A stretch of DNA of 64,000 nucleotides from an uncultured Clostridia bacterium. Its GTDB lineage: Bacteria > Bacillota > Clostridia > TANB77 > CAG-508. This document shows, piece by piece, positions 2,698 through 58,685 of the stretch (positions are counted from its first letter, which is position 1; every line of letters begins with the position of its first letter). The stretch is taken from assembly GCA_910589185.1 (NCBI GenBank), contig CAJUSU010000003.1:8847-72846 (forward strand). The letters are read 5' to 3'. The notes beneath the pieces are model-generated. The model was given only the letters and a program-made list of their open reading frames with translations. It was not told the DNA's origin and made no database searches. The position numbers and the translations under genes were made by a program.

Positions 2698-2726
2698 ATT
2701 ATACCATATTTAAATCTTAATTTCAA
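2698..2726 (-). promoter_or_regulatory. Predicted promoter for the 108-aa gene (TTGAAA-17-TGgTATAAT)
   Basis: The -35 TTGAAA is at 2721-2726. The extended -10 TGGTATAAT is at 2698-2706. A palindrome TCTGCT-N3-AGCAGA at 2671-2685 lies between the -10 and the RBS. Confidence 0.5.
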
Positions 2727-3843
2727 GTTTTGAAGATTTTACCTTTTTACTTTTCTTGCTATTTTTATTTGAAATATTCATCATAACGTTTTCTTTAACA
2801 ATGCCTAACAAGGAATGTAGTGCCTTTGAAATAAGAACTTTATTTTCGCTATCTATGTTTTGGTAATTTTTAATCAATAATCTAGCAGTAGCTATCTTCT
2901 TATTAGAAAGTTCTTCCAAAGTAGTCGCATCTGTAGAATTTATAATCTCAAATAATACCTCTACTACTTGTGCTCTTTGATCAGCAGGTACAGTTTTTAC
3001 CCATTCTTTAATAGTCTTATCAACTAGCAAACTTTTATCAGTTACATTTTTCATGGAAACAAATTTACTCCCCAATACTTGCCAACTATATAAATCATGT
3101 TGCATAATTCCATTTGCTGTACTTTGAACTACTACATATGTTTCTTGATGATTTAATAATCTACCAATTACAGAAGATTGAGGAATATAGGTGTGTACTT
3201 TTTGAATCATTTTTTGATATTCTACTGTTTGAACAATATCATCATCAAAACCAGGACCATCTTCGTTATAGATTATTTTAATTCTTTTCTTGATTTCATC
3301 ATTACAAAACGTTGCAGCGTATACTGCTAAATTACCACCTTTTGAATGCCCTCCTACAATGATATCTCCCTCATATTTACTAGCAATATTATTCAAATAA
3401 GCTTTACTGTCTTTTTGAGATGGTACATGGGAGGAAAAACTCATATTGAAATCTTCCTTCCAACCAATTAAGGTATTGTCTGTACCTCTAAAAGAAACAT
3501 ACAAAATATCATTAGGTAAGCATATTGTAATTGCTGAAAATTGTTTTTCTTCTTTTGGTTCCACTTTATTAATGTAATCTAGCAATATCAAATCTTTATA
3601 TCTCGCACATTTTGCTACTGCTGGGAATAAATCTAAATCATCAACTTGTAATACTGTTTTATCCTTTTCTTTTCTAAATCTTTTGTAAGCTTTTTCTATC
3701 GTTATTTTCTCTTCTCCTTGAAATAGATTATCAAAAGGAAAATAAGAAATTCTAGATAAAATAAGGCTATCTATCTCATTTAATGGAACTTGTGAAAATG
3801 GAATATCTCCTCTCCATGTTAAATAATCCAAAATATTTGCCAT
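2710..3843 (-). CDS. DUF2974 (Mbeg1-like) alpha/beta-hydrolase, lipase-like
   Basis: It has a nucleophile-elbow motif GGHSKGGNLA and the context FRGTDNTLIGWKEDF typical of this family (from memory). Its ATG overlaps the upstream stop (TAATG). Confidence 0.7.
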   Translation of the reverse strand: MANILDYLTWRGDIPFSQVPLNEIDSLILSRISYFPFDNLFQGEEKITIEKAYKRFRKEKDKTVLQVDDLDLFPAVAKCARYKDLILLDYINKVEPKEEKQFSAITICLPNDILYVSFRGTDNTLIGWKEDFNMSFSSHVPSQKDSKAYLNNIASKYEGDIIVGGHSKGGNLAVYAATFCNDEIKKRIKIIYNEDGPGFDDDIVQTVEYQKMIQKVHTYIPQSSVIGRLLNHQETYVVVQSTANGIMQHDLYSWQVLGSKFVSMKNVTDKSLLVDKTIKEWVKTVPADQRAQVVEVLFEIINSTDATTLEELSNKKIATARLLIKNYQNIDSENKVLISKALHSLLGIVKENVMMNISNKNSKKSKKVKSSKLEIKI

Positions 3844-4847
3844 TATCTTTCAATTCTCTCCTTTGCTTCTTGCTGTGCTTCTTTTGTAAATCCTAGAATA
3901 ATACGATTATTCTTTGCAATAATAGTATTCCAGATTTCTTCATACATCTCCTTTTTTGCTTTTGTTGCAATATCAATTGCAGCAATTTCATGCGTTTTGC
4001 CATCTTTCGTCATGACTTTAATGCTTTGATTTGTTTTAATTCCATTTGTACGATAAATCATAGAATACATCCAAATAATATCTTGATATTCTATTACTCT
4101 AAAACTACCTTTGAAGTTGATGACATAACGATTGGTTAAGAACAAATGAATTCTCTCATAATAGAAAGCTTCTGAACTATTCATCTCATTATCCAATGTT
4201 TCAATAGTAGTTTCATCCATTTTCTTAATATTGCTACTAAATTTAATTTTTTGAGTAATTGCTGTGGCAAATAGAATAAGTCCTAATAATCCACAAACAA
4301 AAGCACAAAAATAAGGAATAAATCCAATATCATCCATACCTGTTGCGGAAATATCTAGGTAAACTGCTCCAAAATAAGAATTAAAATCTGCCATAGTTAG
4401 CTTTTCCTCTTCTTCTAAGCCTTGGTTGTATGCTTCTAAAGCATATTCTTTAATTTCCTTTGGAATTAGTTTTGTTCCACCTGTAATGGTAACAGGATTT
4501 TCTTTCAAATCTGTTTTGCTTGTTAGTTCATTATATTTTCCCATATAAGCGATATACATAAATTCGTCATCTGTTACAATAAAATATGCATATGTAGAAT
4601 CTGTTTCTTCTGCAAATAAATATGGCTTTGTATGTACATCAATAGTAGCAATTTGCTCTTCTTTGCCACCATCTTGCTCTACAATGATATCATTTAATGG
4701 TTTTGTATTTGCTTTTGCTTGTTCTACCATATAATAGCCAAATGCTACTAGAGCAATAGCTACAATAAGAAGCAAGATGCTAAGTAGCACATTTCTTGTT
4801 AACCTTTTTTTCTCTTTTAAAATGTTAGGATTTGTAAATCTCTCCAT
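3843..4847 (-). CDS. Membrane protein (2 TM segments) with a C-terminal PH-like/DUF-type soluble domain
   Basis: The hydrophobic segments are LLSILLLIVAIALVAFGYYMV and FIPYFCAFVCGLLGLILFATAI. The gene is translationally coupled to the downstream hydrolase gene. Confidence 0.65.
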   Translation of the reverse strand: MERFTNPNILKEKKRLTRNVLLSILLLIVAIALVAFGYYMVEQAKANTKPLNDIIVEQDGGKEEQIATIDVHTKPYLFAEETDSTYAYFIVTDDEFMYIAYMGKYNELTSKTDLKENPVTITGGTKLIPKEIKEYALEAYNQGLEEEEKLTMADFNSYFGAVYLDISATGMDDIGFIPYFCAFVCGLLGLILFATAITQKIKFSSNIKKMDETTIETLDNEMNSSEAFYYERIHLFLTNRYVINFKGSFRVIEYQDIIWMYSMIYRTNGIKTNQSIKVMTKDGKTHEIAAIDIATKAKKEMYEEIWNTIIAKNNRIILGFTKEAQQEAKERIER

Positions 4848-4965
4848 TTCATTTCCCCCTTTATTTCTATTAATTTATATCACATTTGTTACAAAAAATC
4901 TAGTACATTTCAAGGGAATAATATTTTACAAATTCTTATTTTTCTCTAATAATCTCTTTTCAATT

Positions 4966-5406
4966 TTATCTACATCGGGGAATATTAGATTTATCCCGTT
5001 TAGCCTTTAGCCTAAATACTTTATTTACTTTAGCAACGATTTCTCTTTGCGTACCTTCAACAACAGGTACAGCCTTATCTCTGCTAGTATCTATATGATC
5101 TATATATTCTTCAGTAACTGGAAAAATGTTTTGAATGAGAAAAGCAGCATACTTTTTTCTATATCTTCCAATTACAATGGTATCACAAATACCATTTTTC
5201 TTTATCTTTTCTTCTTGTAGCCTTTTATATTTTTCTACTTTTGAACTCATTGGAACAAACCAAAAAATTTTACTATTTGCATTTCGTATACACAAATAAG
5301 TAGGTCTTGTATTTCCATTTTCATGATTTCTCATTAACTTTTTATCCTTTGCAACTTCAAAATATTCTTCTTTAATATGATATACATATCCTGTTTCTAT
5401 TAGCAT
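4966..5406 (-). CDS. ToxN/AbiQ/CptN-like type III toxin (endoribonuclease), putative
   Basis: Start taken at ATG 5406 with an AAAGGA RBS; the track's TTG at 5421 is less likely. Segments YHIKEEYFE and RPTYLCI...WFVPMSSKVEKY resemble the conserved core (RPY.GI...APLSSPK) of ToxN/AbiQ-type toxins, from memory. It sits directly downstream of a promoter/tandem-repeat/terminator module. Confidence 0.65.
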   Translation of the reverse strand: MLIETGYVYHIKEEYFEVAKDKKLMRNHENGNTRPTYLCIRNANSKIFWFVPMSSKVEKYKRLQEEKIKKNGICDTIVIGRYRKKYAAFLIQNIFPVTEEYIDHIDTSRDKAVPVVEGTQREIVAKVNKVFRLKAKRDKSNIPRCR

Positions 5407-5421
5407 AATTTTTCCTTTCAA

Positions 5422-5458
5422 AACAAAAAGAGACCTTCTATAACTTAATATAGAAAGC
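5422..5458 (-). terminator. Rho-independent terminator/attenuator between the repeat array and the toxin ORF
   Basis: Minus-sense sequence is CUUUCUAUA-UUAAGU-UAUAGAAGG followed by UCUCUUUUUGUUUU. Confidence 0.55.
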
Positions 5459-5471
5459 CCCCTATTTTCAT

Positions 5472-5564
5472 AATGGATAACTTATTACTCGCACCACCAT
5501 AAAGCGAGAACATTTAGCGAAATGGATAACTTATTACTCGCACCACCATAAAGCGAGAACATTT
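5472..5564 (-). ncRNA. Putative type III antitoxin RNA: two tandem repeats (49-nt period, 44 nt identical)
   Basis: Identical 44-mers aatggataacttattactcgcaccaccataaagcgagaacattt occur at 5472-5515 and 5521-5564. Each contains an internal hairpin CTCGC-N11-GCGAG. Confidence 0.6.
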
Positions 5565-5577
5565 TCCTTCTATATTT

Positions 5578-5607
5578 ATTATACTGTTCATTTTTCATAA
5601 TTGTCAA
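5578..5607 (-). promoter_or_regulatory. Consensus sigma-A-type promoter driving the repeat array
   Basis: Minus-sense TTGACA (5602-5607), an 18-nt spacer, then TATAAT (5578-5583). The first repeat begins about 13 nt downstream of the -10. Confidence 0.7.
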
Positions 5608-5672
5608 GACATTTGTATAATAAATATAACATAAAGTTTGCACTATTTTTAAAGATATATTCTTGTTACAAA

Positions 5673-28180: not shown

Positions 28181-29309
28181 TTAATTCTTATCATGTCTAA
28201 TATTTTTCTCATCTACTTCTATAACTTCCTCCGTTTTCACCCTAAAAATGTCTTTATATCCAATTGCTACAAATGCTATCACTAATAAAGCAAATGATAA
28301 TGCTTTCCAAATTCCACTTTCTAATAGAATAACTGCAAACATTCCTAAAGTAGCAGTAAGTCCATATAAAATGAAAACAGCTTGCTTTTGTGTATAGCCT
28401 TTTTTCATTAGTCTATGATGTAAATGCCCTTTATCTGCTTGAAATACTGCTTTAATTGATTTGCCTTTAATAATTCTTCTGACTATGGCATATAAGGTAT
28501 CAAAAATTGGAAAAGCAAGTACAATAATTGGAGCAATTAACACAATTGCTGTATACGTTTTGGCTACTCCGCAAAATAGAAATAATGGCTAGCGAAAAGC
28601 CTAAGAAATTAGAACCAGTATCTCCTATAAAAGTTCTTGCTGGGCTAAAGTTAAATGGTAAAAATCCTACAATTGCTCCACCTAATGCTGCAATTAAAAG
28701 TACTGCAATGAGTGGCGATTTGTTAAGAGTAAAGATAATTAACAATGAAAAACATGAAATCAAAGTAATTCCTGAAGATAAGCCATCTAAGCCATCAATT
28801 AAATTAATAGCATTGGTAATTCCAATAATCCAACAAATAGTAAGTCCACAAGAAAACCATTCATTTAAACCAATTTTGTCATCTAAAAATGGTAAATGAA
28901 CATTTTGAATACGAACTCCACAAGCAACTACTATAACTGCTGCAATAATTTGCATAATAAGTTTTACCCAACTTGGCACTCCCTTAGCATCATCAATAAA
29001 ACAAGTAATTCCTAATACGACAATACCAATAAAAAAGCCTAGCATTTTAAGCCAATATTGTTCTTCTCCAAACAAATCAACAGAATGTTCTAAATTCATC
29101 ACAATTAATAAATATACTGTTGATACCAAGAAACCACAAATAACAGCCACACCGCCTAGTCTTGGCATTGGTTTTTTATTGACTCTTCTATCATTTGGTA
29201 TATCTATTGCTCCTACCTTTTTTGCTAGTCTCATGGTATATGGTGTTAATACAAAAGCAGTAATAAACGCTAACAAAAATGCAATAGCGATGTCTCCCCA
29301 CATAGTCAT
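28181..29309 (-). pseudogene. tagO: TagO/WecA-family undecaprenyl-phosphate GlcNAc-1-phosphate transferase, frame-shifted near 28571
   Basis: Two overlapping ORFs (28500-29309 and 28181-28543) together form one MraY/WecA-like protein with motifs NAINLIDGLDGL, GDTGSNFLGF and PIFDTLYAIVRR. Removing one base from TTG-C-GGAGTAGCC restores ...SILGVAKTYTAIVLIAPII... Confidence 0.8.
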
Positions 29310-30330: not shown

Positions 30331-31092
30331 TTAAATGAATCCTTCAAAGTCTCCTCTGTGTAACTTAGTAAAAAAACGTTGCAACAATAGTATTGTAACT
30401 TCAGCAAGGTCAAATCCTAAAAATGGTTTTTTCCCTTCTAAATAATCTTCCAACTCTTGTTCTATTCTTTCTACTGAATACCATTTATACCGAATACATT
30501 CATTTTCGTCCAAATTCTGTTGTGTCTTTTGTCCTACTCTAGCTACGAAAAGCTTTAGGGTTTCTGTAGAACAAGAAATGTGTAAATGTACAAACGGTTG
30601 CACTAACGGCTGTATCTCTTGTATCTCATAACCAATTTCTTCTTGTGCTTCGCGATAGGCACCCTCCTCCATAGTTTCGCCTTTTTCTATCAATCCAGCA
30701 GGTACTCCCCAGAAAAAGCGTGCATATTGTTTGCCGTCTACGGTCGCTGTTCTAGCACCTCTAGGCTCTAACACCATACAAGTTTCTATCTTTCCGTTTT
30801 TAGGATTTCTTCGAAGACAGAGAACGTGAACAGCTGGCTTAGAAAGCATCAAGTTAAAAGTAAAGTTGTGTAAAGTGCCATTTTTTTCACCAATTTCAGT
30901 ATACTCTGCTACATCAAATCTTTTTAATTTTTTAATTATCTTTTGACTCACTATTAACTGCCCATATTTCCGATAATAGTTCCAACTTGATCTCGGTGGA
31001 ATATATGGCTGTTGTCTCTTTTCCTCCTCGCATTCATTTGTTTCGTAAGCCACATAAGGAAACATGCTAAGTTCATTATTTTGTTTTTTCAT
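30331..31092 (-). CDS. NUDIX hydrolase with N-terminal extension
   Basis: Nudix box GLIEKGETMEEGAYREAQEEIGY; GGAGG RBS. Confidence 0.8.
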   Translation of the reverse strand: MKKQNNELSMFPYVAYETNECEEEKRQQPYIPPRSSWNYYRKYGQLIVSQKIIKKLKRFDVAEYTEIGEKNGTLHNFTFNLMLSKPAVHVLCLRRNPKNGKIETCMVLEPRGARTATVDGKQYARFFWGVPAGLIEKGETMEEGAYREAQEEIGYEIQEIQPLVQPFVHLHISCSTETLKLFVARVGQKTQQNLDENECIRYKWYSVERIEQELEDYLEGKKPFLGFDLAEVTILLLQRFFTKLHRGDFEGFI

Positions 31093-58656: not shown

Positions 58657-58685
58657 ATTATACTAGTTTTTATTTTATTTGTCAA
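58657..58685 (-). promoter_or_regulatory. Consensus promoter for rpmF
   Basis: Minus-sense TTGACA (58680-58685), a 17-nt spacer, then TATAAT (58657-58662). Confidence 0.7.

Follow-up and report, generated by a model that had tools for sequence, protein, structure and literature searches.

A CptIN-family toxin-antitoxin cassette whose full-length toxin probably requires a +1 shift of frame at the rare codon CGG

Does the open reading frame (ORF) of a cptIN cassette always encode the whole toxin? The question is raised by a locus on the minus strand of a 64,000-nt stretch of contig CAJUSU010000003.1 (positions 8,847 to 72,846; assembly GCA_910589185.1) from an uncultured Clostridia bacterium, hereafter the window, in which a promoter, two repeats, a terminator, and a 146-aa ORF follow one another in the order of a cptIN cassette. 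An earlier note, made from the sequence, had read positions 4966-5607 as a complete type III toxin-antitoxin (TA) or abortive-infection module, closer to CptIN than to ToxIN. We found that the 146-aa ORF covers just the portion of the toxin gene that is read in frame 0 and that the conserved C terminus is written in the +1 frame (GINLIFPDVDKIEKRLL...). Our analysis suggests that the locus is a CptIN cassette whose full toxin probably depends on a +1 ribosomal slip at the rare codon CGG.

The frame-0 ORF of the toxin gene, cptN, occupies 4966..5406 on the minus strand, from an ATG at 5406 to a TAA at 4968-4966, and a ribosome-binding site (RBS), AAAGGA, lies at 5418-5413, 7 nt upstream of the ATG. 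When compared with profile hidden Markov models, as the earlier note had proposed, the 146-aa protein scored 150.8 bits against the NCBIfam equivalog NF047359.1, "type III toxin-antitoxin system CptIN family toxin" (cutoff 90), and phmmer aligned its residues 5-133 with residues 4-132 of the crystallised CptN of Eubacterium rectale (CptN_Er; PDB 4RMO; E=1.9e-16). Judged by its sequence, the ORF is a CptN toxin at the equivalog level. The earlier note had pointed to a resemblance to the ToxN/AbiQ core; the Pfam family ToxN_toxin matched (PF13958; 25.9 bits, marginal against a cutoff of 25), and PADLOC gave a match to AbiQ (E=1.9e-6). Structure prediction pointed the same way: an AlphaFold (AF2) model of the in-frame homologue P0060, which is 76% identical to the window protein (pLDDT 88.2, pTM 0.83), had 4RMO_A as its top Foldseek match (TM 0.81/0.83, rmsd 2.6 Å), followed by MazF/Kid/CcdB, ToxN_Bt (4ato), and AbiQ (4glk), and Rao et al. 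2015 reported the structural relatives of CptN in the same order (PMC4627078). The toxin is therefore predicted, on the basis of this model, to have the ToxN/Kid-like fold, a twisted antiparallel β-sheet with helices around it. Ser54-Ser55-Lys56 of the window protein align with the Ser51-Ser52-Arg53 triad of CptN_Er; within the clade, S54 is invariant, and S55 and K56 are each kept in at least 90% of members. The third triad residue is thus Lys here, in contrast to Arg in CptN_Er, and Arg is found only in the more distant members of the family.

The C terminus is where the frame-0 protein departs from its family. More distant homologues are 155-177 aa long and end in ...LKxKGINLIFPDVDxIxxxLLxE..., and the window protein and most of its close homologues end in ...LKAKRDKSNIPRCR*. 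At codons 136-137 (4996..5001, minus strand), frame 0 reads AAA CGG GAU, and AAA CGG is the proposed +1 frameshift site, with an extra C at 4998 before a Gly codon, GGG. When C4998 is skipped, the reading becomes ...LKAK-GINLIFPDVD..., and the fused toxin is 159 aa long and colinear with the in-frame homologues. The +1-frame continuation (GINLIFPDVDKIEKRLLEKNKNL plus stop; 4926..4997, minus strand) ends in a TAA at 4928-4926 and carries the feature 40 nt past 4966. Thus, the earlier note's 146-aa ORF with its own RBS is present as described, but it is not the whole gene, which extends in the +1 frame to 4926. With the +1 segment included, each measure of homology rises: the fused protein aligns with residues 4-153 of the 155 residues of 4RMO (E=4.4e-19), with LKAKGINL..IFPDVDKIEKRL set against MLKRGIKFtpTQPDIQKIYERL, and its NCBIfam score is 168.3 bits over profile positions 1-150 of 150. 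In the P0060 model, the equivalent of this tail forms a loop plus a helix with a pLDDT of about 90, and in CptN_Er the equivalent segment holds Phe139, which is part of the pocket for antitoxin base C6.

Related loci, about 125 in number, were gathered from genomes and metagenomes as well as from protein-indexed contigs. Genes of the window's type, with the short frame-0 end, are called form A here, and the DNA of 15 distinct form-A genes was compared; they are 57-100% identical and lie in unrelated neighbourhoods. The CGG stands at codon 137 in 15/15 of these genes, preceded by AAA in nine, by AGA in four, and otherwise by AAU or AAC. The +1 frame is likewise open in all 15, for 20-30 codons that read G-I-N-L-I-F-P-[DN]-V-D..., and gives fused proteins of 156-166 aa. 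Among the best 120 homologue clusters, about 100 are form A and about 18 are in-frame, and the form with the extra C accounts for the window gene and about 85% of its close relatives. A sequencing or assembly error was considered and rejected, since six independent assemblies of the species agree on the C and all other form-A assemblies have it too. We take this as strong comparative evidence, at the level of sequence, that in most of this CptN subfamily the conserved C terminus is made only if the frame changes by +1 at a rare CGG.

The alternative that survives best, although we consider it unlikely, is that this is an ordinary cptIN locus in which the 146-aa frame-0 protein is the functional toxin, the extra C is an old and tolerated insertion, and the similarity in the +1 frame is an untranslated leftover. 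The frame-0 protein does keep the catalytic Ser-Ser-Lys and the β-sheet core and passes the NCBIfam cutoff (150.8 bits), a frameshift stimulator was not found at the 15 aligned sites, and short CptN variants of 45-101 aa occur in other loci (Blower et al., PMC3401426). The pattern of substitution in the tail, however, speaks for the +1 frame. In the nine-codon overlap where both frames are open in the 15 genes, variable sites number 5/0/8 at +1-frame positions 1/2/3 and pairwise differences 140/0/353, so that changes fall mainly at third positions of the +1 frame and never at its second positions, which are the third positions of frame 0. Because frame-0 third positions never vary, selection acts on the +1 frame and not on frame 0. 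Beyond the frame-0 stop, variable sites number 8/3/9 by +1-frame position, and the peptide keeps a helical [KR]-I-x-x-x-L-L-x-E. Form-A genes down to about 57% identity all keep the +1 frame open, while the frame-0 stop is not conserved and moves among them, giving proteins of 138, 143, 145, 146, or 148 aa.

The in-frame relatives argue in the same direction. In a neighbor-joining tree, form-A and in-frame genes are interleaved, which requires at least 8 changes between the two states, and in-frame genes nested among form-A genes have restored the frame in three ways: by loss of the C (K-G), by loss of an A that left the C in place (TCA AAC GGA, N-G; locus L126), and as K-R-I (AAA AGA AUA; locus L125). 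Three routes of restoration are the pattern expected if the +1-encoded tail had been functional all along, and that three independent 1-nt deletions each gave a normal C terminus would be unexpected for untranslated, drifting sequence. Together, these comparisons make it very probable that the +1 frame is expressed in some way.

How the frame is changed is a separate matter. CGG is the rarest class of codon in this setting. Over codons 1-136, the 15 genes together have 88 Arg codons, and none of them is CGG. In the window, whose G+C content is 30.4%, ORFs of at least 100 aa comprise 18,914 codons, and CGG is found 4 times among them, once as codon 137 of cptN. The other three lie at 28571, 30972, and 30492 in minus-strand ORFs (28500-29309 and 30331-31092), two of them in one 253-aa ORF. 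A scan for tRNA genes found none in the window. We favor ribosomal +1 frameshifting as the route, with moderate confidence. With a Lys-, Arg-, or Asn-tRNA in the P site and the rare CGG waiting in the A site, an abundant Gly-tRNA would read GGG or GGA one base further on, in the manner of a hungry-codon shift of the Ty3 type. Ribosomes that shift would make the 159-aa full-length toxin, those that do not would make the 146-aa truncated protein, and both products may be made.

Precedents for such a site come from other genomes. In glass-sponge mitochondria, a T or C inserted 5' of GGA has given rise to rare UGG_A/CGG_A +1 shift sites, and yeast Ty3 shifts +1 at GCG AGU U (both Atkins et al. 2016, PMC5009743). 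The proposed site in cptN resembles those of the sponges in that one extra base directly 5' of a GGA/GGG Gly codon makes a very rare CGG while the conserved protein continues in the downstream frame, and it resembles Ty3 in that no obvious P-site re-pairing is required; as with these precedents, relatives without the extra base exist. It differs from them in lying on a bacterial chromosome and in a TA toxin gene. It also differs from the site in prfB, as it has neither a Shine-Dalgarno stimulator nor a stop codon in the A site. Our search of the literature for recoding in type III toxins returned nothing relevant, and its "frameshift" matches were engineered ToxN-FS controls.

The full-length toxin might also be made by means other than a ribosomal shift, namely transcriptional slippage on the A-run before the C, RNA editing, or an unusual tRNA that decodes CGGR as a quadruplet, and we regard this family of explanations as quite improbable. 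Most of the genes do have a short A-run (3-5 A) before the C, and the variable P-site codon argues against simple tRNA slippage. Yet the window gene has AAA only, with AAT in L002 and AAC in L111, and runs of 3-5 A are well under the lengths that give useful slippage by RNA polymerase. Quadruplet decoding, for its part, would call for a dedicated tRNA in many hosts (Clostridia, Bacilli, and "Tenericutes" metagenome-assembled genomes).

Still less likely, and in our view very improbable, is that the frameshift has inactivated the toxin of a decaying TA locus in which antitoxin and promoter persist by inertia. Decay of the locus is indeed seen in related strains (L002, L013, and L017, described below), and sporadic frameshifts occur in the family, for example, in a poly-A run of L032. 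A pseudogene would be expected to show assorted lesions and stops in the +1 frame, whereas the same C is found at the same codon in 15/15 genes of different contexts and in about 100 of the best 120 clusters, and +1-frame stops are found in 0/15. The explanation is also at odds with the evidence for purifying selection. The frameshift in L032 (1560-1640) lies in a run of seven A within cptN. It affects a single contig in a group of about 40 near-identical loci that are otherwise in-frame and has the appearance of a common mutation or an error of sequencing, in contrast to the invariant CGG site.

We next consider the RNA half of the cassette. As the earlier note had described, two tandem units of 49 nt, each beginning with AAAUG and containing CTCGC/GCGAG, are found upstream of the toxin, with 44 nt exactly repeated at 5521-5564 and 5472-5515 on the minus strand at a spacing of 49 nt. 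Their 34-nt core occurs at these two sites only in the 64 kb, where 0 occurrences are expected. Tandem Repeats Finder reported no array here because two copies score below its threshold, and a scan of Rfam at E<=10 returned chance-level matches to miRNA and snoRNA models and none for the repeats, in keeping with the earlier remark that such repeats normally go unannotated. AAAU junctions begin at 5564, 5515, and 5467, the third (5467-5464) lying after unit 2 and 48 nt beyond the second, and these three junctions delimit two complete excisable units of 49 and 48 nt (5516..5564 and 5468..5515, both minus strand) rather than 1.9. GGA precedes the first junction, and UGA precedes the third. The repeat unit runs from a 5' tail through stem 1 (S1), stem 2 (S2), S1', an A-rich loop (UAAUAAGU), and S2' to a 3' tail; in unit 1, stem 1 is CUCGC/GCGAG (5557-5553 / 5541-5537, minus strand), stem 2 is AUGG/CCAU (5549-5546 / 5525-5522), and the A-rich loop 2 spans 5536-5526.

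The same arrangement recurs across the family. Among the homologous loci with enough upstream sequence (about 90), most carry about 2 repeats (up to 5.2) of 45-51 nt, laid out as a TTGAC(A)-17/18-TATAAT promoter, repeats, a terminator hairpin, and the toxin. Every unit in the related loci opens with AAAU, another AAAU follows the last unit at the right distance, and the 3' junction UGAAAAU after the last repeat is conserved. We aligned 29 distinct repeat units from homologous loci with MAFFT and scored the alignment against the pseudoknot read off the window sequence, and 93.9% of cells were paired in this model. Compensatory changes were seen at 4/4 pairs of stem 2 (UA/CG/AU; GC/UA/CG; GC/AU; GC/UA), and the outer pair of stem 1 alternates among CG, GC, and AU. 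The covariation score was 0.456, compared to 0.133 +/- 0.022 in shuffles, with 0 of 500 shuffles reaching it, and it fell to 0.10 or less when partners were slid by 1-3 columns. In six loci (L001, L003, L112, L114, L125, and L126), a compensated pair can be seen within the single locus, with AUGG/CCAU in unit 1 and AUAG/CUAU in unit 2. The loop-2 adenines A31, A33, and A34 are invariant. The covariation that the earlier note had suggested looking for thus supports, from the aligned sequences, the reading of each repeat unit as an H-type pseudoknot of the CptI design. To our knowledge, this is the first time that comparative (covariation) evidence from a large number of loci has supported the CptI pseudoknot; in 2012, Blower et al. 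had been unable to align CptI sequences (PMC3401426).

Two other uses of the repeat sequences were set aside. The minimum-free-energy (MFE) fold of the leader, which pairs repeat 1 with repeat 2 in a long hairpin, was not taken as the functional fold, as covariation favours the pseudoknot within the unit and L017 apparently manages with one repeat. An attempt to locate the cut from the 6-nt 5' tail of CptI of E. rectale (CptI_Er) was dropped, since relatives of 45-47 nt have longer tails and the base at -1 varies. That the locus is no TA system at all, its repeats and hairpin serving as a cis-regulatory leader (attenuator or riboswitch-like) for the RNase gene or for the downstream membrane-protein and hydrolase genes, is scarcely credible: attenuators can share a layout of promoter, structured leader, terminator, and ORF, and the MFE fold pairs both repeats together, but the repeats have no Rfam match, covariation favours the intra-unit pseudoknot over inter-repeat pairing, the protein is CptN at equivalog level, and the cassette recurs beside unrelated genes, with the downstream 334-aa gene absent in L001, L002, and L013.

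In the human-gut clade with 46-nt repeats (L032-L089), the two units of an array differ by about 30% and have different stem sequences, and each variant is conserved across many loci, which hints at two non-equivalent antitoxin RNAs per locus. Locus L035 (780-1110) carries 5.2 repeat copies.

Between the array and the toxin lies an intrinsic terminator (5418..5463, minus strand; terminator scan) with a 15-bp stem, a 6-nt loop, and a U-tract. The earlier note had placed it at 5422-5458, and the hairpin and U-tract are there, but the stem is larger, with 15 bp at 5463..5428 followed by the T-tract TTTGTTTT; in the minus-strand reading, the hairpin is followed by UUUUUGUUUU ahead of AAAGGA. It appears in both the MFE and centroid folds and dominates the fold of the leader (z = -4.3), and an equivalent hairpin stands after the repeats in homologous loci. 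We infer that this terminator is leaky.

Upstream of the array, what had been called a near-consensus promoter is a sigma-70-type promoter, TTGACA-18-TATAAT (5578..5607, minus strand), that agrees with the consensus at 12/12 positions and would drive the repeat array and, via read-through, the toxin. Perfect promoter matches number 2 in the window against 0.17 expected by chance, and an equivalent promoter is found 5' of the repeats in nearly all homologous loci. The second perfect match in the window is TTGACA-N17-TATAAT at 58657-58685 (minus strand). A perfect 14-nt inverted repeat (TATATTTATTATAC / GTATAATAAATATA) at 5571-5584 and 5615-5628 flanks the cptIN promoter, its right arm holding the -10 box and start region and its left arm lying upstream of the -35. 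It recurs with altered sequence in the clade of 49/50-nt repeats, and the change in L013 is compensated (TGTATTT.../...AAATACA). This element could be an operator, a hairpin in read-through RNA from fabI, or part of a divergent plus-strand promoter as a -10 box (promoter-like sites 5592-5621). In L004, L005, L006, and L008, which belong to a clade labeled "uncultured Bacilli", the spacer from terminator to cptN is about 150 nt long, compared to about 30-65 nt elsewhere, and holds a second promoter-like element (TTGACGAACGTATATTTAATATAGTACACT); judging by this sequence, the toxin may have a promoter of its own in that clade.

Taking both halves together, several observations weigh against our interpretation of the locus. 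At the 15 aligned shift sites, we saw neither a conserved Shine-Dalgarno-like element upstream nor a stable structure downstream. A stimulator is not obligatory for hungry-codon shifts. A 4-bp stem, GGAA...UUCC (GGGA...UCCC in the window), was tried as a stimulator and rejected, as it begins within the footprint of the ribosome and coding constraints account for it. The codon in the P site varies (AAA, AGA, AAU, and AAC), so simple P-site slippage is not enough for all cases; the three further CGG codons in ORFs of the window mean that the codon is probably decodable and that the shift may be inefficient; and the truncated protein of 146 aa, in which the catalytic core is intact, could itself be the principal product in function. 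On the RNA side, the residues that specify the adenine at -1 in CptN_Er (Asp81, Ser85, and Tyr104) are not conserved, K, A, and D being aligned with them here, and for this reason the cleavage point can be placed within or next to AAAU and no more narrowly. CptIN has never been shown to protect against phage, and its role in abortive infection is unproven; the two cptIN loci tested in E. coli gave no phage resistance (PMC3401426). Processing, toxicity, and neutralisation at the window locus are drawn from homology. With these points counted, we still hold that the locus is probably a CptIN cassette whose full toxin needs a +1 slip at CGG.

As the earlier note had it, the module adjoins the fab operon, where it immediately follows fabI, the last gene of a fabG-fabF-accB-fabZ-accC-accD-accA-fabI cluster, and six assemblies of one mouse-gut Clostridia species carry it at the same place with identical sequence. 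Elsewhere, the cassette adjoins unrelated genes (such as gyrA, thrS, lytB, and pta), which marks it as an autonomous module. It is almost certainly a type III TA cassette of the CptIN family, complete in itself and inserted with fabI on one side and a variable gene for a membrane protein on the other. That gene (3843-4847, minus strand) encodes a predicted membrane protein of 334 aa with no Pfam match, and its stop overlaps the start of a gene for a 377-aa Mbeg1-like (PF11187) putative hydrolase (2710-3843, minus strand). Our scan of the minus strand from 4966 to 3700 agreed with the earlier note that no terminator follows the toxin ORF. Read-through into the 334-aa gene is possible and is not a conserved feature. 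In the sister species L001, L002, and L013, the 334-aa gene is absent, while the Mbeg1-like hydrolase and fabI are kept; given this absence and the other neighbours found elsewhere, we rejected a functional tie between the cassette and the membrane protein and hydrolase.

The sister species and strains also display variants of the locus itself. The fabI locus of L001 holds an intact cassette. In L002 (2800-3450), a clean deletion between short ATCT repeats took the promoter and both antitoxin units, and the toxin ORF is open (85% identical). In L013 (2780-3170), the toxin is lost after codon 22, along with the 334-aa gene, and the promoter, one repeat, and the terminator remain. Locus L017 (3530-3805; GCA_948752475.1, the window's species) has one repeat unit between two AAAU junctions and an identical toxin; this is either a natural variant, a plausible reading given that a single repeat of CptI_Er is enough for antitoxicity, or a repeat collapsed in assembly. 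These natural variants display "safe" routes of decay for the locus: a single repeat, deletion of promoter and repeats, or deletion of the toxin. Nine CptN relatives (37-45% identity) were found on IMG/VR contigs classed as viral (L116-L124), which indicates that phages or prophages carry some of the cptIN cassettes; Blower et al. 2012 found cptIN on chromosomes only (PMC3401426).

How closely does the locus follow known systems? Its nearest counterpart is CptIN of E. rectale (4RMO; PMC4627078), to whose toxin the window toxin is homologous over the whole length once the +1 segment is added, with the fold match of the P0060 model noted above. It shares with that system and with the cptIN family (PMC3401426) the series of promoter, about two tandem repeats, terminator, and toxin, and both loci are chromosomal in gut Firmicutes. 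Published cptIN loci have repeats of 40-48 nt in 1.9-3.4 copies and a mean toxin length of 148.6 aa (PMC3401426); the 49-nt repeat of the window is 1 nt above this 2012 range, and its copy number of about 2 and toxin size fit cptIN, as the earlier note had argued from two long repeats. As in CptI_Er, the antitoxin unit would be a pseudoknot of the H type, in which a short 5' tail leads into two stems and a loop 2 that is long and A-rich (UAAUAAGU in the window; AUAUAAAU in CptI_Er), and in CptI_Er loop 2 (AUAUAAAUG) forms an A-minor twist that is essential for antitoxicity (PMC4627078). On the other hand, the repeat is 49 nt in the window and 45 nt in CptI_Er, and the two are unrelated in sequence apart from the loop-2 motif. 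The junction is (A/U)|AAAU here compared to GA|AAG there, a difference that goes with the lack of conservation of Asp81, Ser85, and Tyr104. Finally, cptN_Er is a single ORF, while the window toxin gene is split by the +1 change at codon 137.

ToxIN of Pectobacterium atrosepticum (Pa) and Bacillus thuringiensis (Bt) and AbiQ/antiQ of Lactococcus are more distant. The plan that the window locus would share with them is that of an endoRNase toxin that processes, and is inhibited by, its own repeat RNA, with a terminator setting the ratio, and the folds are distantly related (4ato, 4glk). ToxIN differs in its repeats of 36 nt (Pa) or 34 nt (Bt), in up to 5.5 copies, and in its heterohexameric triangles. 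Abortive infection is proven for both ToxIN and AbiQ and not for CptIN (PMC3401426), and their sequence similarity to the window toxin is marginal.

By homology to ToxIN and CptIN, we infer the following course of events at the locus. A single strong promoter would give a transcript with two CptI-like units, most transcripts would end at the terminator, and a minority would continue into cptN. CptN, as an endoRNase of the ToxN/Kid fold with a Ser-Ser-Lys active site, would cut this transcript at each AAAU junction and release pseudoknot RNAs of 49 and 48 nt, which would bind and silence the toxin. Membership of the CptIN family would further predict that the units end in a 2',3'-cyclic phosphate and that the cognate RNA neutralises the toxin in a heterotetramer. 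If transcription or the antitoxin supply failed, free CptN would degrade cellular or phage RNA. The extra C before the invariant Gly codon would add a further step, as it interrupts the gene at codon 137, the rare Arg codon CGG, and leaves the last 23 conserved residues in the +1 frame.

A more far-reaching possibility, which we offer tentatively and consider rather unlikely, is that the CGG site is a regulatory sensor and not a tolerated indel. The amount of full-length, antitoxin-binding CptN would then be set by how long the ribosome waits at CGG and hence by the supply or charging of tRNA-Arg(CCG), which would couple toxin dosage or activation to a lack of arginine or to the disturbance that phages cause in translation or in the tRNA pool. 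The 146-aa product might have a distinct role, for example, in antitoxin processing without sequestration. If this were true, cptN would be the first recoding-controlled type III toxin and among very few bacterial chromosomal +1 programmed frameshifts besides prfB.

The cassette is otherwise one more cptIN locus; what had not been described before is a conserved, probable +1 recoding site in its toxin gene. For annotation, the site matters because gene callers at present truncate these toxins to 138-148 aa, and the antitoxin repeats are at present unannotated; the toxin already has its name in a current NCBI model. Few +1 recoding sites indeed are known from bacteria, and a family of about 100 distinct gene clusters would be useful as a natural system in which to study hungry-codon frameshifting among low-GC Firmicutes. 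For the biology of type III TA systems, in which the terminator alone has so far been thought to set the toxin:antitoxin ratio, the frameshift would add a layer of translational control.

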